A stretch of DNA of 64,000 bases from Sodalis sp. (in: enterobacteria) (GCA_052258065.1 JBQQPY010000002.1:593432-657431); one strand, 5' to 3'; counted from the stretch's first letter, positions 7,895-35,424 are shown. Notes: generated from the letters alone by a model not told the origin. Numbers and translations: made by a program.

Positions 7895-8980
7895 CTACCA
7901 TGCAAGGTTACAGGATACGTTGTATATGAGATTGTTGCCACCGGAATAGGCTAGACCGACTTTAACAGTTGCTTTATCAGTAATACGATAACCTGAACCA
8001 AGCGCAATAGCTTGAGATGATTCATAGCCACCGATGCCTGCTGTAATGTTAACTTTACGGATAGAGTAGGGCTGGAAAAGACCGGTTAATGCAGCTGAAG
8101 CTGCTAGGCCACGCTCAACTTTAGTATTTATTTTAAATAATTGATACTGAACGCTGTTAAGACGCAACCTTTCTTTCTGCAGGAAAGAATCTAGGGACTT
8201 AACTGTGTTATGCACTCGATTTAGCTGAGCTATATTAGCGATATCATTATCGCCGAGACCCTCAGACACGCCGCTTATTACTCTGTTGCCTTGATTACCT
8301 GCAACTGAAAGAGTAGTTCCTTGAAGGGTCTTACCGATATGTATCGCACCATCATCGTCTTGATAGATATCTGTAAGCACATGAGCTGTATTATTTTGGA
8401 TTTTTTCAAACATTAATCGAGATTCTTTTTGATAATTTTCGGCGTAATCTGCTGACTCTATTAATCCTTTTTTGTTGGAATTTATTTCTTTTAGTGTATT
8501 ACTAGCTTCATCTTTTAACTCATTTATTTCTTTTTTATAGGCCTCTATGCTCTCTGATTGTAATTTTTCGGCTTGATTTTTAATGATACTCTTTGCCTGG
8601 AAAAGGTTCACAGCGTCAGTGTCTTCGGTAGCAGGAGCAACATTAGTCATTTGAGACACTTTCATTACATGATGCTTATCCAAAAGCTCATCTGGATAGA
8701 GACCACCAACAGAGAGCTCGATAATTTTATATCTAGCTAGCTTAAAAATCTGAAAACTTTTTGGTAATGCATTTATAGTTTTTTCTATATATTCACGACT
8801 ATATTTTCTATCTGACATTGCATAACTGCCTAACGCTGTTGAATTCACTACACTCGCATTAGCAGCATAACCTAATGCAGTAGTATCTCTTCTAGAAGCA
8901 ATTGCAGCATTACCTAATGTATAGGAAGATTTCGCTAGGCCATGTTCCACAATATCTTTCGCAATTGCTGCGTGAGGCAA
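7895..8980 (-). CDS. YadA-type trimeric autotransporter adhesin (short form). The true start is probably upstream of TTG 8980.
   Basis: Uninterrupted 361 codons. Two neck motifs: LSVGG..VSQMTNVAPATEDTDAVNLFQAK and LSVAGNQGNRVISGVSEGLGDNDIANIAQLN. A K/E/N-rich stalk follows. The C-terminal beta-anchor reads GLAASAALTGLFQPY..ITAGIGGYESSQAIALGSGYR..VKVGLAYSG..NVSCNLAW. The frame stays open to 9,208 and encodes a signal peptide there. Confidence 0.75.
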   Translation of the reverse strand: MPHAAIAKDIVEHGLAKSSYTLGNAAIASRRDTTALGYAANASVVNSTALGSYAMSDRKYSREYIEKTINALPKSFQIFKLARYKIIELSVGGLYPDELLDKHHVMKVSQMTNVAPATEDTDAVNLFQAKSIIKNQAEKLQSESIEAYKKEINELKDEASNTLKEINSNKKGLIESADYAENYQKESRLMFEKIQNNTAHVLTDIYQDDDGAIHIGKTLQGTTLSVAGNQGNRVISGVSEGLGDNDIANIAQLNRVHNTVKSLDSFLQKERLRLNSVQYQLFKINTKVERGLAASAALTGLFQPYSIRKVNITAGIGGYESSQAIALGSGYRITDKATVKVGLAYSGGNNLIYNVSCNLAW

Positions 8981-9176
8981 GATGATTAACGTGATAATTA
9001 TAGAATATAATAATCCTATTTTTTTAGAGGGAAAAGCAACTTTATTCAGAATATTTTTATATTTACTAATTTTCCTTGAAAAAACATTCTCATCTAAATA
9101 TATGCTATTTTTTGAACCATTTAATAATACACTATTTCTGTTAATTTTATCTATGCTGTTTATTCGTGTTTTAGTG

Positions 9177-9374
9177 TTAAGAATTTTTATATTTTTTACT
9201 ATTTTTAACTAAAGACACTTTAGATAAAAAATCAGAGGTTACTTTAATTTCCTTATTATATATAAAGTCTAGAGCTATATATATTCTCTTGAAAGAATAG
9301 GCTTTCAAGAAAAAGAATAAATCAGCAGAGGATAAAAAAGACAATAAGTTATGTCTTGATTCTATTCTGTTCAT
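9177..9374 (-). CDS. Hypothetical 65-aa ORF upstream of the adhesin gene
   Basis: ATG is preceded by AAGGA at -7. A 65-codon open frame is unusual in such AT-rich DNA. I recognise no homology. Its 3' end overlaps the open upstream extension of the adhesin frame. Confidence 0.25.
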   Translation of the reverse strand: MNRIESRHNLLSFLSSADLFFFLKAYSFKRIYIALDFIYNKEIKVTSDFLSKVSLVKNSKKYKNS

Positions 9375-18429: not shown

Positions 18430-19270
18430 ACAAACCTTGCTCAGCTATACGGGCTGTATCGGAGGGGGTAAAGCAAAGATAAATAAGAATTGCATCTTTA
18501 GCGTTAATAACTGCTTATACCATCAACTGTATCAGTAAATAAATTATCCACTATCAGGATATTCCATGCCAGGAGTTAAGGAGTCAGCATCTTTTCTACA
18601 TAATCAAGGAAGGCATATTATCCGGTCATTGCTCTATCGAGCAACATAGTTGCACTTAATCTAGATGGATGTAGACTAATGGTAAGTTTTATCATTTCCT
18701 CGTCGGCTCGTCGGATATCAATCCGGCATTATTGACTTTGTCTTCTAAAGCTCTTTAACTTACTAATATTTTTCGTTGTTGCTGTTTCGTCAATGAAAAT
18801 GCCCCTCTCTTGTAAAAACAAGACATTTCTTTAGACTATAATTTTCGTAAATGAATTACATCGTTGCGCTCTTACTGATTGGCATTTACCGTATTTTTAA
18901 CCGTTATCATGTGGCGGCGAAAATCGCGATAGAATTGTAAGACTCGCTTGAATTCTAAAAGTACTTTTCAGGGAGATCTGTATTTTAAATAAGGCTTAAG
19001 CACAAGATTCATCAATAAGCGCCAAGATAAAATTAGAATACGTATCAATTTTTAATCCACGATTCGGGTTTTCTCTAGGTCTAGGATGTAACTTCTGGTC
19101 TGACGGAATTGCTTACTCTAACACACCGAAACAGAAGAGTTTATTTTATATCTATGTGCCGCTTCGTCTTTAGATTTACCTGACTCAATCAATTTGATTA
19201 TTTACTATCTTCATTCCTCACTTTAATAAAATTCTATTTAGACCTTAGAAAAATTAGCCATAGCATAAGG
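18430..19270 (-). mobile_element. IS630-family type C, decayed, with its 5' terminus inside the cyoE 3' end
   Basis: Colinear with the copies at 5,228-6,165 and 63,082-63,975. The terminal sequence ..GACCTTAGAAAAATTAGCCATAGCATA supplies the last 9 codons and the stop of the cyoE reading frame. Confidence 0.7.
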
Positions 19271-20125
19271 CACCATAACGTCGACCGATATCATGACACT
19301 CAGCGAGGCAATAGCGACGATCGAAAAGATAAACAGCTTACGCACCCAGATCTTATCATTATTGGCAGACCTGTAACCCTGTAACGCCATGCCTAACCAC
19401 CAAGCGCTGACCGAGATGGCAACAATTAGGTATCTGCAGCCAGCATAACCGCCCAGCGTTAACATCAGCGTCGCCACCATAAACGCGATAATATACAAAG
19501 TAATATGGTGTTTAGTGATTAAAATGCCGCGTTTTATCGGCAAGACCGGAATTGATGCTGCCTGATAATCCTAGAAACGAAAGATGGCGATCGCATAAGA
19601 ATGTGGCATTTGCCATAGGCTAAAAATCAGCAGCAAAATTAACGCACCAGTATCGAATCAGTCGCTAACGGCACAGTATCCAATCACCGGCGGCGCGGCT
19701 CTGGATAGACTGCCAATAAGCGCACCGTAAACAGATTTTCGCTTCATATACAGGCTGTATAGGCCAACGTAGATAATAAATCCTATTATGGCCAGCCACA
19801 TGGCTAGCGGATTGGGCGCCAGATCCAGTATCGCAAAACCAGCAATACCCAGCACTGTAGCGTAAACCAGACTAACTTTTACAGAAATTAATCCTTTCAC
19901 CAAGACCCTGTTTTTGGTCCTTTCCATTTTCCAATCAATGTCACGATCAATATAGTTATTAAAAACGCAACCCGAGGCAACTACTAGGGATACACCGATC
20001 AGCATAGCGAGAAACAGGGAATAGTCGATCTGACCCTTTGCAGCTAATAAAAATCCCCTAATGACAAAAATGAGATTACCACCAATAATTCCTTGTTTTG
20101 TTACTTGTAGATATTGTTTAATCAT
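19238..20125 (-). pseudogene. cyoE: Heme O synthase (protoheme IX farnesyltransferase), inactivated
   Basis: ORFs 19658..20125 and 19238..19543 are in the same frame and colinear with E. coli CyoE. They are separated by in-frame TGA (19660..19658) and TAG (19573..19571). The sequence between them still reads [28 protein letters not shown]. The C-terminus is replaced by an IS end. Confidence 0.9.
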
Positions 20126-20473: not shown

Positions 20474-21087
20474 CAAAGTGCCCCCATTAAATACACCACG
20501 GTAAAGACGCAAATCCAAACCAGGTCTAGAAAGTGCCAGAATAGGCTCAAGCACTGCAAACGGATTTGGTTGACTGGAGTCAGACCACGGCAGGAGACCT
20601 GAACCATCATTACCAGAATCCAGATAAGGCCGGAGATGATATGCAGACCGTGGGTGCCCACTAGCGTAAAAAATCCGGAAAGGAAAGCGCTGTGATCCGG
20701 GCCATAGCATTCCGCAATCAAGTAATGAAATTCGTACAGCTCCATGCAGATAAAACCAAAACCGAACAGAAAGGTTAGACCTAGCCAGACGTTGACCCGG
20801 CTCTTATCGCCGCGGTACATGGCTAAAATCGCCATACCGTAGGTGATACTGCTAAACAGCAGGAAGAAGGTTTCAATCAGAACACACGGCAGCTCGAAAA
20901 TCTCTTTACCCGTGGGTCCGCCCGCCACGCTATTTCTCAGAACGGCATAGGTGGCAAATAGGGTTGCGAATAGAATACAGTCGCTCATCAGGTAGAGCCA
21001 GAAGCCAAATATTTTGTTAGCTCCTGCATCGTGGTATCCATGCTCGGCATGGTCTGTATCATAATTAAATAGAATCTTAGTTGACAT
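20473..21087 (-). CDS. cyoC: Cytochrome bo3 ubiquinol oxidase subunit III
   Basis: 204 aa, the same length as E. coli CyoC. Shared blocks include ..[23 protein letters not shown].. and ..[24 protein letters not shown]... Confidence 0.93.
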
Positions 21088-23070
21088 TCTTCACGCCTGA
21101 TTCACTGATTTGATCAAAATACCGATTCTCAATACGTTCGATTTCTTCTACCGGCACGTAATAATCCACGTTTTCATTGAAGCTCTGGATTATCCAGGTC
21201 GCGATCATGCCGACAAACCCGACGATCGCCAGCCACCAGATATGCCAGATTAAGGAAAACCCAAATACCAAGCTGAAGGCAGCGATAATCACGCCGGCGC
21301 AGGTGTTTTTCGGCATATGGATAGACTCATAGGCCAGTGGCTTTTTATAAGCGGTGCCTTCCTCTTTCATCTGCCAGAATGCATCAAGCTGATTGTTTAC
21401 TTCCGGTAAGACGGCGAAGTTATAGAATGGCGGGGGGAGGAAGTCGCCCATTCTAGAGTACGGCCGCCCCACGGATCACCCGTCATGTCGCGGTTTTTTT
21501 CGCGATCGCGCACGCTGACCAGAATCTGGATAACTTGGCACAGGATACCCAGCGCGATAAGCGCAGCACCAGCGGCGGCCACCATCAGCAGCGGGTGGAA
21601 AACGGGATCGATCTGCTGGCTCAAACGGCGGGTCATCCCCATAAAGCCTAGTACATACAGAGGTATAAACGCGATATAGAATCCGATAATCCAGAACCAG
21701 AAAGCGCGCCTCCCCCAGGTTTCGTTCAGGGTATAGCCGAAGGCTTTCGGAAACCAGTAGTTCATTGCCGCAAAGCAGCCAAATACCACGCCACCGATAA
21801 TGACGTTATGGAAATGGGCAATTAAAAATAGGCTGTTGTGCAGCACGAAGTCGGCGCCCGGCACCGCCAGCAGCACGCCGGTCATCCCGCCGATAGAGAA
21901 GGTGATGATGAAGCCTACGGTCCACAGCATCGCCGAGTTAAACACTACGCGCCCCTGATAAAGAGTGAACAGCCAGTTGAAAATCTTTACTCCGGTCGGG
22001 ATAGCGATAATCATGGTCATTATGCCGAAGAAAGCGTTAACGTTGGCGCCGGACCCCATAGTGAAGAAGTGATGCAGCCAAACGCAGAACGACAGCACGG
22101 TAATGACAATGGTCGCCCATACCAGAGAGGTGTAGCCGAACAAGCGTTTTTTCGAAAAAGCTGCCACCACTTCCGAAAAAACACCAAACACCGGCAATAC
22201 TAGGATATACACTTCCGGGTGACCCCAAGCCCAGAACAGGTTCACGTACATCATCACATTGCCACCCATATCATTCGTAAAGAAATGGGTACCCAAATAG
22301 CGATCCAGGGTCAAGAGCGCGATAGTCACGGTTAAAATCGGAAACGCTGCAATGATCAGCACGTTAGTACACAGCGCAGTCCAGGTGAAGACAGGCATTT
22401 TCATCATCGGCATGCCAGGGGCGCGCATGCGAAGAATGGTGGTCAAGAAATTAATTCCGGTCAGGGTGGTACCGATACCGGCTATTTGAATACTCCAGAT
22501 CCAGTAATCCACTCCAACGCCAGGGCTGTACTCTTTTCCTGCTAGCGGAGGATAAGCTACCCAGCCGGTTTGGGCAAATTCACCCACGCAGAGGGACAGG
22601 TTGATAAGGATTGCGCCGACGACGAAGAGCCAGAAACTCAGGGAGTTCAGGAAAGGAAAGGCAACGTCACGCGCGCCGATTTGCAGCGGTACCGCTAGGT
22701 TCATCAGGCCAACCACAAAGGGCATCGCCATAAAGATTATCATGATGACGCCGTGGACGGTCACCACCTGATCATAATGATGAGGCGGCAGAAAGCCTGC
22801 TTCGCTCGCCGAGGCCAGCGCCTGCTGCAAGCGCATCATTATGGCATCGGTGAAGCCGCGCAGCAACATCACAAACGCCATGATTATGTACATAATACCG
22901 ATTTTCTTATGATCTACCGAGGTGAGCCATTCTTGCCAAAGATATTGCCATTTAGCAAAGTAGCTAATTGCGGCTACTAGCGCTAGACTAATTACAATGA
23001 TAGCGGCAACAGTTATCATAATAATCGGTTCATGGTACGGCACTGAATCAAACGTTAATTTTCCAAACAT
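21077..23070 (-). pseudogene. cyoB: Cytochrome bo3 ubiquinol oxidase subunit I with a single frameshift
   Basis: ORF 21397..23070 (557 aa) and ORF 21077..21472 together are colinear with E. coli CyoB. The frames switch at ..LEWATSSP|PPFYNF.., inside a C6 run on the coding strand (G6 at 21,432-21,437 on +). C7 would restore the frame. Confidence 0.9.
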
Positions 23071-23075
23071 CGCTA

Positions 23076-24017
23076 TTATTCCTCGGCACCCTCGTAAAAG
23101 TGTTTATCTATATCCATATCCATGTCTCTCCTTTCGTCCTTGGAGGTGGCAATTCTCTTGCCCTTTCCCATAAATTTTCCGATCACATCTTGGTACAGAT
23201 TAGATTTAACTCTAGAGAAATACTTGACCGGATGATTCTCGCTCGGCACTGCCAGCTGCTCGTAAGCATCCATGGTGCTAAGTATATTAGATGATGCCTT
23301 AACTTTCTGAACCCACCCCTCGAAGCTTGCTTCATCCGGCGTGGCAACGGCGGTGAATTTCATACCGGAAAAACCCTGCCCACTGAAGTTCGATGAAATT
23401 CCTTTATAACTTCCCGGCTCGTTGGCGATGAGATGCAAAGTGGCATTCATTCCGGCCATTGCGTAAACCTGGCCGCCTAACTGGGGAATAAATAAGGAAT
23501 TCATCACCGAATTGGAGGTAATCTTAAACTCGACCGGAACGTTGGCCGGGAAAGCGATTTCGTTCACTGTGGCGATACCTTGCTCTGGATAAATGAATAG
23601 CCATTTCCAGTCCATCGCAATAACTTGAATCATCAGAGGTTTAATGTCAGACGCAATCGGCTTGCTCGGATCCAGCGCCTGGGTCGACTTCCACGTCAGG
23701 GTTGCCAGGAAGAGGATGATAAGGATAGGAATCGTCCAAACTACCAGTTCTACCTTTCTAGAATGAGACCAGTTGGGGTTATACGTCGCCTTAGTATTTG
23801 ACGCGCGATATTTGATAGCGAAGACGAATGCCATGATGATAGCGGGTATAACGACAATTAACATCAGCCCGAGAGCAGTCAGTATTAATGAACGTTGCTC
23901 TAGTCCTATCTGTCCCTTTGGATTCATTAAGACCATATCTCTGCAGCCACTAACCAACGCGACAACGTTAAACAGTGAAAGAGTCCCTAAACTTTTATTA
24001 TATTTCCTAAATTTCAT
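23076..24017 (-). CDS. cyoA: Cytochrome bo3 ubiquinol oxidase subunit II (lipoprotein)
   Basis: 313 aa, colinear with E. coli CyoA. Lipobox ..ALVSGC. Shared block ..[19 protein letters not shown].. ..NSVMNS.FIPQLG.Q.YAMAGM... Confidence 0.93.
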
Positions 24018-24175
24018 CTAACGACCTCAATTAAATTTTCTTTAATGTCGTTTCTTGTATCGAGGCATTTTACGGAAAGGTTACAGCACTGTAAACATGC
24101 TTAAGATTACCCAATTATACATTTTGCTCAGCCATATTACTTTCATCCATTCTCGCTTATATTACGCTGCGACAA

Positions 24176-24890
24176 AAAATTATCACAATTTTATAGAAAA
24201 TTAACTCAACAGCTTGAATAATCTCATTCTACAATCATTCAACGGTTCTTTCTGAAGCTTTCTGAGCAGTCATGTGTTCTTGGGAAACGCCATATTGATA
24301 GGATTTAAATACGCTGAACAAGTCGGACGATAAAGAATAAATGCATCTCTAACCTAATAGCTTCTTGTACATTATAGACTTTATAAGTAGCCAAATTATC
24401 TATTATCACGACATTTCCTGATATAAGTTCAGAAACAAGTAACTGCTCTAAATAAATAAGAAAAATATTTCGTTTCATTTCTATATCAAGTAGCATCGTT
24501 GCACTTAATCCGGAGAGAAGTATGCACGCAGTAAGTATCATTGTTTTTAGTGAGCGCCTAGAACATCCGTCCCGCATTGTTGACCTCGCCTGCCGCAACC
24601 CTTTCTTACTCATATTTGTCGTGATTGTCGTTTTATTAATGAAACAAACTTTTCTAGTGAAAATAGAACATTTCTTAAGACCATGATTTGCGCCTATGAA
24701 TTGCATCATCAGGTTCTTGTTCAGCATCATATAAGGTCTTTTTTGACCGTTAGTATATGGCAAAAACGCGGTAAACTGGCAAGGCTTTTTAACTGTTACA
24801 AGTACTTTTCAGAGAGGCCTGTATTTCAAACAAGGCTAGATTACAAGACTTATCAATGAACTTCAGTCTAAAAAGGCGAGACGCCGACCC
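24176..24890 (-). mobile_element. IS630-family type C, 5'-truncated, decayed
   Basis: ORF 24305..24763 contains ..IFLIYLEQLLVSELISGNVVIIDNLATYKVYNVQEAI.. (DDE block). Colinear with the other type-C copies. Confidence 0.65.
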
Positions 24891-24904
24891 AGAGAAAATT
24901 CGAG

Positions 24905-25100
24905 ATGCTGGAAGCCTGGCTCATTAGGGATACTGATAATGGCTATATAGCGATTAGCAATCATGTGGTGAATTACGCATCTAAATACAGGTACAGCTCA
25001 ACGATGGACGTACATTCAACGCTAAGCTTATCGGTAAAGATACGCAATCCGATATTGCACTAGTGTATCTGATTCACTCCAAAAATCTGACCGAAATAAA
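24905..25100 (+). pseudogene. DegP/DegQ-type (HtrA family) serine protease fragment
   Basis: Read across two frames: ..IRDTDNGYIAISNHVVNYASK / VQLNDGRTFNAKLIGKDTQSDIALVYLIHSKNLTEIK. Compare DegQ ..KGYVLTNNHVI....I.IQLNDGREFDAKLIGSDDQSDIALLQIQNP..LT.I. The fragment holds the catalytic His and Asp region only. Confidence 0.6.
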
Positions 25101-26010
25101 AAATTGTAAGAATATTTCTTGTAAATTAATTCAATAGATTAAGCGATCGCATTCTACAGAAAATCAACGGTTCTTGCTGCAGCTTTTCTAAGCACTGATT
25201 GCATTTTGGAAAATTCGGTCTCGATAGGATTTAAATCCGGTGAATAAGGCGAAAAATAAAAAAGTATTATATCTTTAGCCTCAATAGGCTTCTCATGAAA
25301 AATTAACTTTATGAGTAGAAAAATTCTATATTATTACCACATTCCTTAGTGCAGTTTAAGGGACAAGTGCTTGCTCTACATAAACAAGGCAACTGTGTGC
25401 ATTCATTGCTCTATCAAATAGCATAGTTGCACTTAATCTAGATAGATCTATTCCAGCAGAGAGCATCGTTGTTTTTCAGTGAGTGTATAGCAATCAGCCC
25501 TACATCGTTAATCTCGTCTACTACGGGTCTTTGATCCGCTGATCTTTATCGTTATTGCCGTTTTATCAAAGATAAAACGCTTCTCTGATAAAAATATGAT
25601 ATTTTTAGGCCATAATTTACAGCAATGCACTACATCGTTGCACCCTTGTTCAGTGGCATCTACGATCTTTTTAACCGTTATCATGTGATTTTGAAAGAGC
25701 CCGATAGAATAGCAAAGCTAGTTTAAATACTGAAAGTGCTTTTCAGGAAGGCCTGTATTTCAGAAAAAGCTAGATCAGAATATTCATCAAGAAGCCTCAA
25801 AAAAATCAGAATACGCATCAATTTTTGAACCGCGATTCAGGTTTCCTCTAAGTTTAGAGCTGTAATTTCCGATTTCACGAAATCGATTACTCCAACGAGC
25901 TGCAGCAGAAGAGCCTATTGATATGTATCCTTCTCTGCATGTACAGAGCTCTACGCTTCAATCAATCCGATGATTTGCGATCTTAAGTCTTTTCCTGGAT
26001 GGGGTATGAT
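25098..26010 (-). mobile_element. IS630-family type C, near full length, decayed
   Basis: Colinear with 5,228-6,165, including the DDE block relic at 25.3 kb and the HTH part at 25.85-26.0 kb. Confidence 0.65.
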
Positions 26011-26050
26011 TTTTTTAAAAATTTAGGTTTTATTTTTATGATTATATTTC

Positions 26051-26203
26051 AATCGTAACTCAGATTTGTTGATATTTTTCTATTTTCATAAATAAGAGCG
26101 ATCTTTTATTGCTTCAATTTTCTATTAAAATAAAAATTTTAAGTATTATTCAGTAGAATAGATATGTGATCTTCGTTTTTATCAAGAAATCTGAATCACG
26201 ACC
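26051..26203. mobile_element. MITE (copy 1), ~150 bp, with ~20-bp TIRs
   Basis: ..CGTAACTCAGATTTGTTGATA...TATCAAGAAATCTGAATCACGACC. Same element as 53,974-54,127. It lies inside IS481 3'-end sequence (26,010-26,290). Confidence 0.7.
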
Positions 26204-26289
26204 GATATTGCATAGACTGAAATTAAGTTTTATTACCTAATACTGATTTGTGCAACTCTTGATTGTAGATAAATTTACACTGATCCAGA

Positions 26290-26451
26290 CATGTAATGAG
26301 AAAAATATGATAAAGTACATTATATTTAATGTTTCTCGTTCTTATTTGTTATAAAACAGTCTAACGATCTATTTATTTTTGAAATAGCAAGCAATTTATT
26401 TATCATTTTTTTCAGAGAAATAAAAAAAAGAAAAATCAGATATGGAATGAC
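26290..26451 (+). mobile_element. IS1595-family-like right end
   Basis: Aligns to 50,050-50,213 and ends ..AAAAATCAGATATGGAATGAC (compare ..AAATCAGGTTCGGAATGAC). Confidence 0.6.
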
Positions 26452-26825
26452 GACTTAAACGCTTTGTGCTTTAGTGTTAGCGCTCTCTCCTTGGTGTTAT
26501 ACAAACCTCTTCTATCTCTACATAAACAGTGAACTAGAGAAGATCAAAATATAACAGATCATCTAGTGGGAGAAACGCGCCTTCTGAAGGAAAACGGCCA
26601 CTGCTTCCCTGCTAGGCAACATCATATCTATAAACGATTGGGAATACGGCTATGGCCCTAAGTACTATCTCGTTTTTGCTATTTAGATATGCTTAGTTCA
26701 AAGGTCCTAGAGGACTTAGCCAAAGTAGATGCCTGCTCGTTGCTTGCCTAAAGAGCGATCTTGATTTTAGATATTTCAGTTGCCTGACTATGGAGTCTCA
26801 TAATGCAGTAATAAATTTATTATCT
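26452..26825 (-). mobile_element. IS481-family-like 5' part, decayed
   Basis: TTAAACGCTTTGTGCTTTAG.. (..FKA..), then HTH relic sequence ..GCCAAAGTAGATGCCTGCTCGTTGCTTGCC.. as in other copies. Confidence 0.6.
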
Positions 26826-26839
26826 CTAACTTCTTTATT

Positions 26840-27462
26840 TTAAAATGGAAAAAATAAACTTATCCCACTGACTATCAGGGCACCGCCAAAGCAACGATTC
26901 TGTATTCTTATCATCCGTGGCTCCCGCACTAAATTTTGTATACGACTGGCACTGAAAGCATAGATATTCATCATGATCGCATCGACGGTAAGCATCGTTA
27001 TTGTCATGATGGCGAGCTGCATCCATAGCGGCTGTATAGGCTCAATGAATTGCGGCATCAAGCTAATCATAAATACGATAATCCTTGCATTAGTTGCCGT
27101 TGTCACAAAGCCAGTGATAAAGCGCTTTAACTTAGGTAAGGGTGCCGTAGTGGAGTTAGATGCGCACAATGCCTCTGTAGGGATTGGGGCACACCATGTT
27201 GAGTAGCCGGTATAAATTAACCAAGCTGCTCCTAGGCTCCTTATGACCATCAATATCTTCGGTGATGCCAGAATGATGCCGGCCCCTGTACCAACCATAA
27301 TCATGATAAGCGCTAGCGCTGTTCCTGGCCGGCGATGATTAAAATAGTTTTACGCCAACCTTGGCTAAGCCCAAAACGCATTGCTTGTATTGAGCCAGGA
27401 CCCGGTGAAATGGCGGCAAGACAAGACATTATCAGGAATGCAGACCAGGTGCTATAAGACAT
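26840..27462 (-). pseudogene. LysE/RhtB-family amino-acid exporter, frameshifted
   Basis: MSYSTWSAFLIMSCLAAISPGPGSIQAM..IIAGQE (ATG 27462, GGAGAAGAG SD) continues in another frame as ..ALIMIMVGTGAG..LMPQFIEPIQPLWMQLAIMTITMLTVDAIMM.. Compare RhtB ..LFPQFI.P.QP..MQ... The frames switch near 27,305-27,330. Confidence 0.8.
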
Positions 27463-28342
27463 AGAGCGCTCTTCTCCGGGCAGATTAAATTTTCCTATTG
27501 CCATTGATGGACGCTGCAAACGTCTATCGCAAGCAGACATAGAATACATAAGATTTTTTAGAAGATCTTAACGAGGTATTCAGCAATACGTTTTTTATTT
27601 ACTCATCGATTTTAGTTGCAACAAAGGCAGTGAGTAGGGCCTCAGAGTCGATTATGATAGGTGTCAATAATTTTCTCTTGTGAAATAAGATGATATCTAG
27701 GCTTTACCATAACTGCTATACCTCTAGACCGCTGGGAAAAGAACGAGTGACTCTAACATATTACTCCATATTTAACTTATCTGTTAGTAATTTTATCATC
27801 TCACGATTTTTAGAGATGCTAGTTTTAGCCTGCATTTAGCATATTGAATGAGACATCGTAGTTATATGAAGGAAAGCGGAACGAACAATCTGGATGATAC
27901 TGCCAGAAGGTTTTCTTTTTTTGATCAATATATCTGTTTGCAATAGCCGAAGTAAGCGCAAGAACCAGGGCTCAGATTTCTATAGCCGAGCATACTGCAG
28001 ACCTAGACTTCGGGATTTAAAATTAAAGCATATGTTCTGGATGCTCCAACGCAAGCCGCAATCAAGCGTTGTTTTTAGGCAGGCTACGCGTCTATTGCAG
28101 TAAACTATGCCTTTTTGTAATCCTTCTCATAAATATAGCCGATATTAGTGAGAGCATCGCTACTAATATAGATTAGCACCCATAACTATCATTCCTAGGC
28201 TGGCTATATCGCTCACCGATAATTTGCCTTCGTCGCGATAAAGAGTCAAATTGATTTTTTAGACAAAGGAGCCAGCGCCGGCTATGATACCAGGAGGCAG
28301 TGATTTATTTAGGTGACCCAGCAGATTAAAGAATGGCTCAGT

Positions 28343-28606
28343 CAAGAGAAGTGCTTTTAAATTCTTAGTAAAGCATAATTTAACTCTTCTAGAAAGGAAA
28401 GGTAATCCTTTATGGCGATATTATCTACTGCTCTTCTCTTCACTGTTGAAAACAGCTGCAAAGCCTGGCTTTCCAAAGCGTACAAAGACTATCATAATAG
28501 TATGATTATCTTTCAGTGAAGCTTAAGCAAGGCTGCCGACAATGATCTGCCTGTACTGACAGAAGGCGGCTATTAAGCAAGAAGCTAAGTCAGCGATAAT
28601 CTTCAT
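28343..28606 (-). pseudogene. hupB: HU/IHF-fold DNA-binding protein relic, probably hupB by synteny
   Basis: About 88 codons with 2 in-frame stops: MKIIADLAS..ASLKDNHTIMIV..RFGKPGFAAV..SRRVKLCFTKNLKALL. Compare HU-beta MNKSQLIDKIA..ESLKEGDDVALVGFGTF.V..KVPSFRAGKALKDAV. It lies directly downstream of lon, as hupB does in E. coli. Confidence 0.45.
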
Positions 28607-28905
28607 TACTATCTATCGTTGTTCTGCCAAAAATCGTTTGGTCTACATATGTCTCTACTCAATCTAAGGCATTTTGAGAGGAAGTCTTATAGGGAACTCA
28701 ATTCCTGTTATCACTACGTGTTTATATAAGATTTACTATTATACTAGCCAGCTTCTTTCATGCATTCTTGCTTATATGGGGGAAATCTTAACCACATCTC
28801 TAGCGAGAAATATTACTAAGTACTCTACGCTACCCATATGATTAAGATAATGGGATAGCAGCAGACCACTAACGGCTCTTTAGTGATTTATTTTACATAA
28901 ACCGC

Positions 28906-31266
28906 TTATTTTAATGCTTTTGGCTTCTCTTCTATACTAAAAGGAGAATTCTGCAGCGCTAAATTTAACACCTCGTCAATTCGCTGAACCGGATGAATAT
29001 CTAGGTCATTTATCACATTAGCCGGCATATCTTCCAGATCCTTCTTATTCTCAAAGGGAATCAGCACGGTTTTTATGCCGCCGCGGTGCGCTGCCAGTAA
29101 TTTTTCCTTCAAACCGCCGATAGGCAACACCTGACCGCGCAGAGTAATTTCGCCGGTCATCGCTACGTTGGCCTTAACAGCATTACTGGTCAGGCAGGAT
29201 ACCAGCGCCGTACACATCGCGATCCCGGCGCTCGGCCCGTCCTTCGGAGTCGCGCCTTCCGGCACATGCACATGAATATCGCGTTTTTCATAGAAGTCAG
29301 TATTGATCTCAAGCTTGTCCGCGCGTGCGCGCACTACAGTCAGCGCCGCCTGAATGGACTCCTGCATTACCTCTCCCAGTGAACCGGTATAGATCAGCTT
29401 GCCCTTGCCGGGCACGCAGGCGGTTTCGATGGTCAGCAGATCGCCGCCTACCTCCGTCCATGCTAAACCAGTTACCTGGCCAATACGGTTTTCTCCTTCC
29501 GCACGCCCATAATCGAAGCGCTGCACACCCAGGAAGTTCTTCAGATTGTCATCGCTGATGGTGATATGTTTAGCGCTCTTATTCATCAGCAAGGTTTTCA
29601 CCGACTTACGGCATAGTTTAGAAATCTCTCGTTCCAGGCTGCGCACCCCGGCTTCGCGGGTGTAATAGCGTATGATCCCCACGAGCGCGCTATCTTTTAC
29701 CGTCAACTCTCCTTTCTTCAGGGCATTGCGTTCGAGCTGCTTAGGCAACAGATGCTGCCGAGCAATGTTGAGTTTCTCCTCTTCTGTGTAACCCGATAGG
29801 CGGATTACTTCCATACGGTCGAGCAGCGGCGCCGGGATATTTATCGAGTTAGAGGTAGCAACAAACATCACATCAGAAAGATCATAATCTACTTCCAGGT
29901 AATGATCGTTGAACGCTACGTTCTGCTCGGGATCTAGCACCTCCAGCAGCGCCGACGCGGGATCTCCGCGCATATCTGAAGACATCTTGTCGATTTCATC
30001 AAGTAAGAATAGCGGGTTCTTCACGCCGACCTTTGATATCTTTTGGATAAGCTTACCTGGCATTGATCCGATATAAGTACGACGGTGCCCGCGAATTTCG
30101 GCTTCATCACGCACGCCACCTAGCGCTATACGTACATACTTCCGGCCGGTAGCCTTGGCGATGGATTGGCCGAGCGAGGTTTTCCCCACTCCGGGCGGGC
30201 CTACCAAGCATAGAATGGGCCCCTTTATTTTACTGACCCGGCTCTGTACCGCGAGATATTCTAGAATGCGGTCTTTGACGCGTTCAAGCCCATAATGATC
30301 TTTATCGAGAGTTTCCTGCGCCTTGACCAAGTCTTTTTTGACTTTGCTGCGCGCATGCCAAGGCACTGAAAGCATCCAGTCGATGTAACCGCGCACGACG
30401 GTCGCCTCAGCGGACATCGGCGACATCATCTTTAATTTCTGCAGTTCTGCCTCGGTCTTTTCCCGGGCTTCCTGCGGCATTTTTGCAGCCTCTATCTTGC
30501 GCTTCAGCGCTTCATTTTCATCCGGCGCGTCGTCCATCTCGCCTAGCTCTTTCTGAATCGCCTTCATCTGCTCGTTCAGATAGTACTCGCGTTGGCTCTT
30601 TTCCATCTGCTTTTTAACGCGATTGCGGATACGTTTCTCCACCTGCAGCAAGTCAATTTCGGATTCCATCATTGCCATTAGGTACTCTAGCCGCTCGGTC
30701 ACATTAACTATTTCCAGCACCGACTGCTTATCGGCCAACTTCAGCGTCATATGGGCAGCAATGGTGTCAGCCAGACGGGCGGCATCATCAATGCTGTTTA
30801 ACGAGGTCAATACTTCGGGAGGAATTTTCTTGTTCAGTTTGATATAGCCTTCAAACTGATTAATGGCGGTGCGGACCAATACTTCCTGCTCGCGCTCATC
30901 AACTGCCGGCTCGTTAAAATAGTCCGCCTCAGCGGTGAAGTGATCGCCGCTGTCTACAAGCTCCTTGATACGAGCGCGGGTTAGGCCTTCTACTAGCACT
31001 TTGACCGTGCCGTCAGGCAGTTTAAGCATCTGCAGAATAGACGATACTGTCCCGACTGAAAAAAGATCATTAATATCCGGCTCGTCAGTTGACGCTTCTT
31101 TTTGAGCTACCAACATGATTTTTTTATCATTTTCCATGGCTGCTTCAAGACACCGAATCGATTTTTCCCGGCCAACAAACAGCGGGATAACCATGTGCGG
31201 ATAGACCACCACATCGCGCAGAGGCAATATGGGAATTTCTATGCGTTCGGAATGCTCAACATTCAT
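28906..31266 (-). CDS. lon: ATP-dependent Lon protease
   Basis: 786 aa, colinear with E. coli Lon. Walker A motif GPPGVGKTS. Catalytic region ..[17 protein letters not shown].. with ..[21 protein letters not shown]... Confidence 0.98.
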
Positions 31267-31352
31267 AGAGCTCTCTCTTAGTTTAGTTTCCGCCAGGTTT
31301 ATGAAGTGCGCAAAAACTCAGCTTTTGCTAGTTTCAACAATTAGGTGCTTGA

Positions 31353-31384
31353 ATATGTGGGGGTTGAATCACTTACATTCAACG
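31353..31384 (-). promoter_or_regulatory. sigma32 (heat-shock) promoter of lon
   Basis: Minus strand reads GTTGAAT-N13-CCCCCACATAT about 90-120 nt upstream of the lon ATG. It fits the sigma32 consensus CTTGAAA-N13-15-CCCCATNT and, from memory, closely resembles the E. coli lon promoter (GTTGAATGTGGGGGAAACATCCCCATAT). Confidence 0.65.
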
Positions 31385-31479
31385 GCAGCCGGTAATGAAA
31401 AAACGGGGGACAAAATCCTATGCTTGAACGCTCTCAATTGTCGTACAATATCTCCTAAAGAGCCTGTTGCGCTTGGTGC

Positions 31480-32724
31480 TTACCCGCAGATAAGCAACGG
31501 CTCCGATTGGCCGGCAATGACCGCTTCGTCAATCACCACTTTTTCTACGCTATCCTGGGAAGGCAAGTCGTACATGATCTCTAGCAGCACGCCTTCCACG
31601 ATAGAGCGCAAACCGCGTGCACCGGTTTTGCGTGCCATGGCTTTTTTGGCAATGGCGGTCAGCGCTTCGTCTCGGAATTCCAGCTCAACACCTTCTAAGT
31701 TAAATAACGTCTGATACTGTTTAGTCAACGCATTTTTCGGCTCGCGCAAAATCTGAATTAGCGCTTTTTCGCTTAATTCATTCAGCGCCGCTACGACTGG
31801 CAAACGACCGATAAATTCCGGAATAAGGCCGAACTTAATCAGGTCCTCTGGTTCGACTTGCGCGAGCAGTTCGCCTTCGGTGACTTTTTCTGAACTGCCT
31901 TTAACGGTGGCACTAAATCCGATACCGCGGTTAGTTTCGGTACGCTGCTCGATCACTTTATCCAGACCTGCAAAAGCTCCGCCGCAGATAAACAAGATTT
32001 TTGATGTATCCACCTGCAGGAATTCCTGCTGCGGATGCTTACGTCCGCCCTGGGGCGGCACCGCGGCTACAGTACCTTCTATTAATTTCAGTAGCGCTTG
32101 CTGAACCCCTTCACCGGAGACGTCCCGAGTAATAGAGGGGTTATCTGATTTACGGGAGATTTTATCGATCTCATCAATGTATACAATACCGCGCTGGACT
32201 TTTTGCACATCATAATCACATTTTTGCAACAGTTTCTGGATGATATTTTCAACATCCTCACCCACGTACCCGGCTTCGGTCAGAGTCGTAGCGTCGGCCA
32301 TAGCGAACGGCACATCAAGGAAGCGTGCTAACGTTTCCGCTAGCAAGGTTTTGCCGCTTCCGGTGGGCCCAATTAGTAAAATGTTGCTTTTACCCAGTTC
32401 AATGCCGTTATTAGTATCGCTATTGCGTAACCGCTTGTAGTGATTATACACCGCCACCGCGAGCACTTTTTTCGCTTTTTCTTGACCAATGACATAATCA
32501 TCTAGGTGGCGACGGATTTCATGAGGAGTCGACAACGCGCTAGGCTCACTGCTTGCCGCAACTTCCTTTATATCTTCGCGGATAATATCGTTGCATAAGT
32601 CAACGCATTCATTACAGACATACACCGATGGCCCAGCGATCAATTTCCGCACTTCATGCTGGCTTTTACCGCAGAAAGAGCAATACAACAGCTTTCCTGA
32701 ACCGTCTTTCCGCTTATCTGTCAT
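31480..32724 (-). CDS. clpX: ATP-dependent Clp protease ATP-binding subunit ClpX
   Basis: 414 aa. Zinc-binding N-terminus [30 protein letters not shown]. Walker A motif [11 protein letters not shown]. Colinear with E. coli ClpX and ~10 aa shorter at the C-terminus. Confidence 0.98.
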
Positions 32725-32867
32725 TAGTAAACCTCTTTCTTTCGTCTTTGTCTTGCAGACTAATCAGGGCAAAAACGTAACTCCCGAACTCAAAACGCGG
32801 CGCCGGAAACGCTGACGCTCATGAACACTACGTTAACTATAGTCTATCGGTTGCCGCTATTAATTAA

Positions 32868-33488
32868 TTACGCGCGCTGGCTTAATACGGAATCTACTAA
32901 TCCATAGTCTACCGCCTCAGCTGGAGAGAGGAAACGATCACGTTCGGTATCCCGCTCTATTATTTCAAGAGCCTGGCCCGTATGTTTCGCCATTAATTCA
33001 TTCATCCTCGCTTTAACCTTCAGGATTTCCCGAGCGTGAATTTCAATGTCGGTAGCCTGACCCTGGAAGCCGCCTAGCGGCTGATGGATCATGACCCGCG
33101 AGTTGGGCAGGCAGAAACGTTTACCCATCGTGCCGGTGGCCAGCAAGAAAGCACCCATAGAGGCGGCTTGACCCATGCAGAACGTGCTGACATCCGGTTT
33201 AATGAACTGCATAGTGTCATATATTGACATCCCAGCGCTAATGACGCCCCCGGCGAGTTAATGTACAGGCAGATATCTTTTTCCGGATTTTCCGCTTCTA
33301 AAAATATCATCTGCGCAACGATCAAATTTGCCATATACTCTTCAACTTGACCAGTCATGAAGATAATGCGTTCTTTCAATAGGCGCGAAAAGATATCGTA
33401 TGAACGCTCTCCGCGTGAAGTCTGTTCTACTACCATCGGCACCAAGGCCATATGGGGGAAAGTTATCTTGTTTACTGCTGTATAACAT
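32868..33488 (-). pseudogene. clpP: ClpP protease subunit with two frame disruptions
   Basis: The SD-preceded ATG at 33488 (AGGAGacgataATG) opens [12 protein letters not shown], the propeptide. This is out of frame with [36 protein letters not shown] (ORF 33089..33451). That in turn is out of frame with ..[37 protein letters not shown] (ORF 32868..33230). Breaks lie at a C5 run (G5 at 33,454-33,458 on +) and a G5 run (C5 at 33,247-33,251 on +). Confidence 0.9.
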
Positions 33489-33789
33489 TATCGTCTCCTA
33501 GAAAACCCTCCAGCGCCTAGGTTTTAGATTTTACGTGAGATGCACCTGCATTGCCATGTTGCAAGATTTTGTCGGTTTACTGGAAAGGCCTCAACCTTTC
33601 TTTCTCTACCCTGCAATTTCCCTTGTTTTTCCCTAAAGGCAGCAGCGACATTCTTTTAGCGCTAGAGATTGCCGGATATTTCCGAGGCACTTACTTACTT
33701 TTAACACTGCTTGCTCGTTAAATATAGTACTGCCTATCACTATCAATCAGTATAAAAAGCTTACTAAATCATGCATTGTACTCGGCCGG

Positions 33790-34035
33790 CCTCAACATAC
33801 TGCATGGCATTATGGGTTCTTGAATGTCGCTACCAAAGGCGCAATATTAGCGCTCTCCAGTCATAAATTCAGTTGAATCCATACTCAAATTCGACGAGGT
33901 GACGAGGTGTATGTTGGCCAAGAATTGCATGGTTAGTGCTTGTTATGGCATTTAGGTATTCTCCAGAAGAGCATTCCTATAGCTTAAGTTTAGTTAGGTA
34001 AGATACGTAATCAGAAGAGCCTACATAAATCAATA
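33790..34035 (-). mobile_element. IS1595-family-like C-terminal fragment between tig and clpP
   Basis: Reverse complement reads ..ALLEN....HLVEFEYGFN.. and aligns to 3,240-3,470, 44,350-44,520 and 52,790-52,990. Confidence 0.55.
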
Positions 34036-34188
34036 GGCCTACGACTGCGAGATGCAATGCTATACGTATGACGGATGAGCTTCTAGACGGCGCGCGGCCT
34101 GGCAAGAACAGCGGTTATACCGCGCTCGGCTTTTTCATCAACATAAACTCGCTGAAGCTCATTTCTTTTTCCGTTACGCGCGCGTTGA

Positions 34189-35424
34189 CTAGTAGCGCTT
34201 CAACCCCCGCACTTCCAGTGCCATGTTATACATGTCGTCCATCAGCCGTTTATTCTTGCCGTAGAGCTTGGCAACTTCTTTCGGATCTTCGTAAGCTGAC
34301 GCTATTTCTTCAATTAGCGCGCTGACGAGGGTCTCGTCCGCTTTCAGTGCATGTTTGCGGACAACTTCGCCTAGCAGGAGGTCGATCTTGACGTGGCGCT
34401 TAGCCTGTTCTTTAAAGAGCTCGCGCGGCAATGGCAGCGCCTGTCTTTCTTTGCAACTGAAGCGCTGTGCTGCCTGGCGTTTCAAGACGTCGATTTTACC
34501 GTCGACCAGCGCCGCTGGAACGTGAATATCGTTCAGGCTAAGCAGACCGTCAATCACTTGATTTCTTATACAGCTGCGCACGGCGCTTTTTAGCTCACGC
34601 TCCATGTTTTTACGCACTGCGGCGCGCAAGCTCGCCAAAGTACCGTCGGCGATACCGAAACGTTTAATCAAGGCCTCATTCAGCTTCGGCATTTCACGGC
34701 GCTCAACTTTTTTGAGCTCTACGGCGAACAGCGCGGCTTTGCCTTTTAAATTTTCTGGGTAGTCGTCTTCCGGGAAACGGATGCTGATGTCAAAACTTTC
34801 GCCCGCTTTATGACCAATGATACCGTCTTCAAAACCGGGAATTATTTGGTTCTGGCCTATAGCCAACACAAAGTTGGTGACTTTTCCGGCCTCAAGCGCT
34901 TTGCCGTCAATAGTGCTACCGAAGTCGACCGTAACGCGGTCTTCCGCGCCGGCGACATCGGCTGTTTCTTTCCATTCGGCCTGTTGTTTGTACAGCGTTT
35001 CTAACATGCTATCAACATCAGTTTCCTTCACTTTCACCTGTGGTTTTTCAACTTCAATAATGTCTAGTCCCGTTAATTTAACTTCAGGATAAACTTCAAA
35101 TTCTACCGCATAGCTGAAATCTTTGCCGGTCTTGTATTCGTCTAGGATATAATTCGGCACGCCCACCGGATTTATTTTTTCCTGGATAATAGCGTCGATA
35201 AAGTGCCGCTGTACCAATTTGCTCAGCACCTCCTGACGGACACTGGCACCATAGCGCTGCGCAAGAATGTTCATAGGGACTTTCCCTTTGCGAAAGCCGG
35301 CTACGCGGACTTTTTTGGCGACGTTTACCAACTCGCTTTTCACTGCTTGCTCAATCGTATCGGCGGCAACGGTAATATTTATACGGCGCTCTAGGCCTTC
35401 GGTGTTCTCAACAGAAACTTGCAT
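34189..35424 (-). CDS. tig: Trigger factor, with the C-terminal ~25 residues lost to a frameshift
   Basis: 411 aa, colinear with E. coli Tig up to ..[10 protein letters not shown], then VRGLKRY*. The homologous tail (..[21 protein letters not shown]..) continues in another frame to TAA at 34,115-34,117. The break is at or next to a G5 run (C5 at 34,204-34,208 on +). Confidence 0.9.

Follow-up and report, generated by a model that had tools for sequence, protein, structure and literature searches.

The cyo and lon-clpX-clpP-tig genes of a Sodalis sp. carry four frame-breaking deletions at short runs of G or C: one in cyoB, two in clpP (propeptide and core), and one in tig. All lie in a 64,000-nucleotide stretch of the chromosome (C2:593432-657431, hereafter the window). 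The association of these deletions with runs is real, not chance. Its origin is probably technical for the most part: the frameshifts would mainly be consensus errors in the deposited assembly, overlying the real background of a decaying lineage that has lost mismatch repair.

The genome comprises 1.81 Mb (a 1.74-Mb chromosome, to which the C2 coordinates refer, and three small replicons; 43.8% G+C), in which 253 open reading frames (ORFs) of at least 350 aa are left. On sequence evidence, the source is a Sodalis-allied insect symbiont in mid-decay, because the proteins most similar to its ClpP belong to named Sodalis symbionts. When the read-through ClpP served as a protein query, the nearest sequences were 90-92% identical, the best match (92%) being that of Candidatus Sodalis endolongispinus. 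Neither this query nor exact look-ups with the ClpP fragment and ClpX brought up an independent assembly of the organism. Insertions and deletions (indels) were called on pairwise DNA alignments to G005, the closest genome (presumably Sodalis praecaptivus-like; main contig 4,709,528 bp; clpP 86-89% identical in nucleotides), and on a 14-genome alignment (the source plus 13 Sodalis-clade genomes) of clpP and the tig 3' end. No closer relative was found in the source's GTDB genus or in that of G005, and a family-wide search of 401 genomes returned nothing above ~89% nucleotide identity to the source clpP.

Four deletions at G/C runs

The original prediction placed four frame-breaking indels, in cyoB, the clpP propeptide, the clpP core and tig, at G/C runs of at least 5; alignment to G005 bears this out. 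Every one is a deletion: −1 in cyoB, −2 in the clpP propeptide, −1 in the clpP core, and −1 in tig. In relatives, the tracts at these sites are interrupted by another base (TCTCCCCC, GGN GGN, GCG GTT), and therefore the run now present was partly created by the loss of a base. The coding sequence of the block contains five G/C runs of at least 5, four of which carry an indel. Among all single-nucleotide deletions possible in the G005 orthologues, 0.5% would end at such a run, whereas all three of the −1 events observed do so (chance p ~1e-7).

Two further indels in the block keep the frame and lie away from G/C runs: a +6 in tig, and a −30 at the 3' end of clpX (window 31480-31490) that takes the final ten codons. 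Both look like repeat-mediated slippage, with the frame retained through selection. The older pseudogenes of the window (gluQ, hupB, insertion-sequence relics) had been described as dominated by substitutions and stops. The contrast was checked on cyoE, which has two nonsense substitutions (19658-19660, CGG to TGA; 19571-19573, AAG to TAG) and no indel.

Frame switches across the genome

A reference-free survey combined a hexamer coding score with frame-switch geometry. Sites were flagged where one coding-like frame ends within another, both spanning 80 codons or more, and junctions were afterwards assessed one gene family at a time. Of the 140 sites flagged, many are ordinary gene overlaps. 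G/C runs of at least 5 lie in 14 of the 140 switch intervals (3.2 expected), and those of at least 6 in six (0.33 expected); A/T runs of at least 7 lie in eight (1.2 expected). None of 400 shuffles reached the observed count for any run class. Thirteen of the 14 switches at G/C runs are of the −1 type. Enrichment at homopolymers is clear throughout the genome and stronger at longer runs, so the association proposed for the block extends beyond it. A sample of 30 run-free switches held 27 ordinary gene overlaps and three true frameshifts (rpoB, metK, and asmA).

Many of the affected genes are otherwise whole. When read through, gyrB (G8), alaS (G5), metG (A7), fabF, lpd, hemA, trpB, gshB, uup, and rluC each yield one uninterrupted NCBIfam match, as do rpoB and metK. 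Shortening the flanks in a second scan brought in infC (A7), proS (G5), yidC, murE, rplX (A7), rnt, and ddl, each again giving one uninterrupted match, together with hldE, sspA, glpG, crr, and a further lesion in gshB. No second copy was found of any frameshifted gene checked, and the genes checked include every essential one. In all, the lone frameshifts number ~45, and ~10 of them fall in essential single-copy genes: rpoB, gyrB, infC, proS, alaS, metG, yidC, murE, metK, and rplX. These ten are indispensable to any bacterium. On C2, nine of the lesions map to ~308810 (rpoB), 90685-90692 (gyrB), ~33840 (alaS), ~112320 (metG), ~1013600 (metK), ~497580 (infC), ~216885 (proS), ~804750 (yidC), and ~772310 (murE). 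No cell would be viable with such a broken gene set; therefore, the assembly carries a pervasive class of 1-2-nt deletion errors.

The focal lesions share the form of these errors. Ten control lesions were resolved against G005: seven are −1 (gyrB, alaS, metG, rpoB, metK, mutS, and lpd), and three are −2 (mutL, fabF, and hemA). With the four focal lesions included, all 14 are deletions. No insertion was confirmed among them, and one further case, nlpI, could be +1. In G005, the base lost from metG, lpd, and gyrB breaks up a near-homopolymer, and the same pattern is seen in cyoB, the clpP core, and tig. By this fine structure, therefore, the focal lesions resemble lesions that must be artefacts. 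The rpoB and metK lesions lie outside any run, and those of murE and yidC in runs of just 2-3.

Ribosomal RNA (rRNA) genes are touched as well. A single rRNA operon is present on the chromosome, along with a decayed 23S/5S fragment (C2:1557707-1558444). In the sole 16S gene (C2:1688023-1689525), a conserved GAGGGGGGTAG G6 reads G5 (at about C2:1688680); this is the single internal indel relative to three Sodalis relatives. The 23S gene is free of indels and retains one G6.

Four long homopolymer blocks also occur in the chromosome: G244 (C2:310289-310532), C274 (C2:413524-413797), G76 (C2:471825-471900, at the 5' end of dam), and G88 (C2:928214-928301). The 244-nt block interrupts rpoB between adjacent RpoB residues, and the sequences on either side of it align to the rpoB profile as a single stretch. 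Such blocks are evidently plain assembly artefacts, not biology.

These features suggest how the assembly may have acquired its errors. A consensus that drops one or two bases, mostly in or beside homopolymer-like tracts, would make intact genes appear frameshifted. The source of the deletions may be an error-prone long-read consensus with a deletion bias, and the poly-G/C blocks could have arisen during polishing or gap filling with poly-G reads of two-colour short-read chemistry.

Two approaches bear on the share of artefacts. The first assumes that errors hit blindly and that essential genes make up about one-third of the intact coding sequence: 10 essential hits among 45 would then correspond to ~30 artefacts, or ~65% of lesions overall and ~55% of those in dispensable genes. 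The second compares lesion types. The proven pseudogenes mutH, mutS, and cyoE together hold eight nonsense codons versus two frame changes. When the same scan criteria are applied to genes that are otherwise intact, there are two to four lone nonsense codons (mutS, spoT, and one or two uncertain cases) versus ~45 lone frameshifts, roughly a tenfold difference. A single real process is unlikely to produce these opposite ratios, which therefore argues for a majority of artefacts. (The spoT lesion, at C2:509330, is an in-frame TAA at an E. coli Gln position, near the C-terminal domain; being of the substitution type, it is probably real.)

For each focal deletion taken singly, the chance that it is an artefact ranges from a little better than even to fairly good. 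The clpP core deletion is the likeliest artefact, and those in tig and cyoB are the least likely. Some of the four may be genuine, with cyoB and tig the likeliest candidates.

Error or decay

The original prediction offered two readings of the frameshifts: systematic homopolymer miscalling, or the real mutational signature of a repair-deficient lineage. Miscalling is better supported for the overall pattern (essential genes, the 16S gene, 14 of 14 deletions, and the poly-G/C blocks), although it is not purely a homopolymer matter, as the off-run lesions of rpoB and metK and the runs of 2-3 in murE and yidC attest. Repair deficiency holds for the repair genes themselves, through the nonsense codons of mutH and mutS, but is unproven for the four focal indels.

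Several observations weigh against a technical origin. The mismatch repair genes, whose status had been raised with the second reading, are indeed damaged. mutH (C2:1254699-1255315) is decayed, its sequence interrupted by five or more in-frame nonsense codons and a single change of frame; mutS (C2:1272274-1274801) has a TGG-to-TAG substitution at C2:1273174 and a −1 at a conserved A6; and mutL (C2:588794-590651, ~3 kb before the window) shows just a −2, where G005 has G8. Nonsense substitutions are not explicable as indel errors, so mismatch repair is truly dead in the lineage, and therefore real instability of run length is expected. The tig gene has the highest ratio of nonsynonymous to synonymous substitution rates (dN/dS) in the block, 0.224, with 92 of 432 residues changed relative to G005. 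Moreover, it is a multi-stop pseudogene or lost in three of six reduced Sodalis-clade relatives (G035, G050, and G102), in which the neighbouring clpP is intact despite the decay of tig. (Relatives with an intact tig are all in frame at the tig site.) Because cyoE is a genuine pseudogene, the cyo operon may no longer be needed, and selection on cyoB may have relaxed. The −2 in the clpP propeptide, at a short run, is less typical of a simple homopolymer miscall, and is of a size seen again in three of the control lesions. Lesion density in the block, four per ~9.5 kb of coding sequence, exceeds the genome average, estimated at ~1 per 12 kb. Finally, the estimate that ~0.5-0.8 of the lesions in dispensable genes are artefacts is a rough one.

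On a rival reading, the four deletions would be real: first-hit slippage in a lineage without methyl-directed mismatch repair, in genes on which selection has relaxed (the cyo operon after the death of cyoE, dispensable tig, and clpP), with the artefacts in other parts of the assembly an independent issue. The broken repair genes, the nonsense codons of cyoE, the state of tig in the source and in three relatives, and the paired clpP lesions all speak for it. So does the exponential rise of indels with run length in mismatch-repair-defective E. coli (PMC8510543), and real lesions would persist only in dispensable genes and hence be enriched there. Yet frameshifts are not confined to dispensable genes: lesions of this type also strike about ten essential single-copy genes, among ~45 lone frameshifts, and the 16S gene, so that the type is no evidence of reality. 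Replication slippage yields both gains and losses, whereas the resolved lesions include no confirmed insertion. Proven pseudogenes here decay chiefly through nonsense codons, not frameshifts. Further, every relative examined retains clpP, which is intact in 13 of 13 Sodalis-clade genomes, reduced ones included, and in frame at both clpP sites. The double break in clpP, 200 nt apart, is weak as proof of real decay: at the estimated genome-wide density, chance would give about three genes hit twice, which matches the number observed (gshB, asmA, and clpP). The dN/dS ratio was also tried as a discriminator. At 0.06-0.22 it indicates strong constraint, which fits recent death or artefact alike, and it is uninformative except for tig. 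On balance, a real origin of all four deletions is unlikely.

The frameshifts might instead be real even in essential genes and be tolerated, either through transcriptional or translational slippage at runs or through intact alleles in a polyploid, heterogeneous population. Blochmannia vafer provides a precedent in dnaX, dnaG, and pth (PMC3017870), and dead mismatch repair would increase run-length heterogeneity within the host. However, that precedent concerns A/T tracts of at least 9, and the runs in the source measure 2-8 and are often G/C. Slippage cannot rescue the off-run lesions of rpoB and metK or those of murE and yidC in their runs of 2-3, the 244-nt block inside rpoB cannot be biological, and the four focal frameshifts are common to none of the 13 relatives. 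Such tolerance is highly improbable. Scarcely credible, too, is the sweeping version, in which the indels are real throughout and a symbiont without mutH, mutS, and mutL survives by expression slippage or mixed genome copies; if true, it would extend the poly(A) phenomenon of Buchnera and Blochmannia to short G/C runs in a young symbiont. Chance, that is, four unrelated indels merely lying beside G/C runs, draws on the small number of events and nothing else. It is refuted by the probability calculated for the three −1 events and by genome-wide enrichment that rises with run length, and may be dismissed for practical purposes. Consensus error in the assembly thus stays the probable main origin of the pattern.

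Gene-fragmenting indel errors of long-read bacterial assemblies are well described (Kastor PMC12007338; Trycycler PMC8442456). Like them, the source has lone 1-2-nt deletions at homopolymers that split conserved genes, essential and rRNA genes among them, with a strong deletion bias. Unlike typical long-read errors, some lie off any run, and they are accompanied by poly-G/C blocks that suggest an additional short-read polishing or gap-filling artefact; moreover, the genome mixes artefacts with many true pseudogenes.

Insect symbionts offer a second comparison. In Blochmannia vafer, the frameshifts of dnaX, dnaG, and pth lie in poly(A/T) tracts and are possibly rescued by transcriptional slippage (PMC3017870). 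As in Blochmannia and Buchnera, the source is an insect symbiont with decaying repair and single run-associated frameshifts in otherwise intact genes, some essential. The Blochmannia and Buchnera cases, however, involve poly(A/T) of 9-12, are confirmed by accurate reads, and are sometimes conserved between species, with slippage rescue shown for some (PMC3017870). In the source, some frameshifts have no run at all; the runs at the others are short and in most cases G/C, and relatives share none of them.

In mutation-accumulation lines of mismatch-repair-defective E. coli, the indel rate climbs exponentially with run length (PMC8510543). The source resembles these lines in that its indels depend on run length and in that mutH and mutS are truly inactivated. 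In E. coli, though, substitutions dominate (30,061 versus 5,324 small indels; PMC8510543), whereas in the source lone frameshifts are about ten times as common as lone nonsense codons, and every lesion resolved is a deletion. An insertion-to-deletion ratio for repair-deficient E. coli was sought, and PMC8510543 gives no figure for it. For Sodalis-allied symbionts, PMC4948707 describes deletogenic replication slippage, with deletions between short repeats. The clade is the same, and the clpX −30 and tig +6 indels look similarly repeat-mediated; in contrast to slippage between short repeats, the −1 focal losses are of 1 nt at mononucleotide runs.

Genes of the block and their annotation

On the minus strand the block reads cyoE (pseudogene)-cyoD-cyoC-cyoB-cyoA and lon-clpX-clpP-tig (Table 1). 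cyoB is colinear with its G005 counterpart (94% nucleotide identity, one 1-nt gap), and its read-through product matches as a single protein (dN/dS 0.075). clpP retains its catalytic motifs and is strongly conserved (dN/dS 0.062), with eight lineage-specific residue changes versus 11-16 in four reduced relatives with an unbroken clpP. Its downstream frame is opened by an ATG at 33449-33451, the equivalent of Met14, immediately before the mature N-terminus. The tig frameshift costs the final ~23 residues.

Table 1. Genes, runs, and indels of the block, in window coordinates
Feature	Position	Strand	Remarks
cyoE	19238..20125	−	True pseudogene; dN/dS 0.10; 3' end replaced
cyoB	21077..23070	−	Split ORFs 21397..23070 (557 aa) and 21077..21472 (131 aa)
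cyoB frame switch, C6 run (coding strand)	21432..21437	−	One base short of G005 (TCTCCCCCG in G005)
G/C run without indel	21712..21716	−	Inside cyoB; sole such run of at least 5 in the block coding sequence
lon	28906..31266	−	Intact, 786 aa; length as in G005
clpX	31480..32724	−	Intact, 414 aa; dN/dS 0.028
clpP	32868..33488	−	Two breaks; ORF pieces 33089..33451 and 32868..33230
clpP core G5 run (coding strand)	33247..33251	−	Pro-Gly-Gly codons; one base short of 13 of 13 relatives (GGN GGN)
clpP propeptide C5 run (coding strand)	33454..33458	−	Two bases short of all relatives (TTTGCACCYCAT)
tig	34116..35424	−	ORF 34189..35424 (411 aa) stops early past the frameshift; ancestral stop aligns near 34116-34118
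tig in-frame 6-nt insertion	34143..34148	−	Near the 3' end; off any G/C run
tig G5 run (coding strand)	34204..34208	−	One base short of relatives, in which a conserved Ala codon, GCG, breaks the tract

Lone frameshifts appear unevenly spread. In the first scan, C2:520000-720000, which holds the window's first half, had ~11 in 200 kb (hemA, sucA, mrcB, mutL, cyoB, clpP twice, tig, lpd, feoB, and nuoM), versus ~20 in the other 1.5 Mb; such crowding might reflect poor coverage of the region. On a small replicon, C1 (35.9 kb), trpB (C1:1651-2849) and rnt, encoding RNase T (C1 ~22181), are each split by a lone −1-type switch at a G/C run. A plasmid-borne trpB recalls amplification for host provisioning.

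For annotation, clpP, tig, and cyoB should be listed as uncertain in frame rather than dead, pending accurate reads. More generally, a lone 1-2-nt frameshift in a conserved gene of this genome is not evidence of gene death, and this includes mutL. Within the window, an RhtB-family exporter (26840-27462) and a YadA-like adhesin (7895-9374) are single-frameshift calls of the same class, to be treated as unconfirmed. Without re-polishing, inflation would affect the pseudogene counts and metabolic reconstructions of this symbiont, as well as claims that its genes were recently inactivated. Lesions of the substitution type can be trusted: with cyoE, mutH, and mutS broken, heme O synthase and mismatch repair are really lost.

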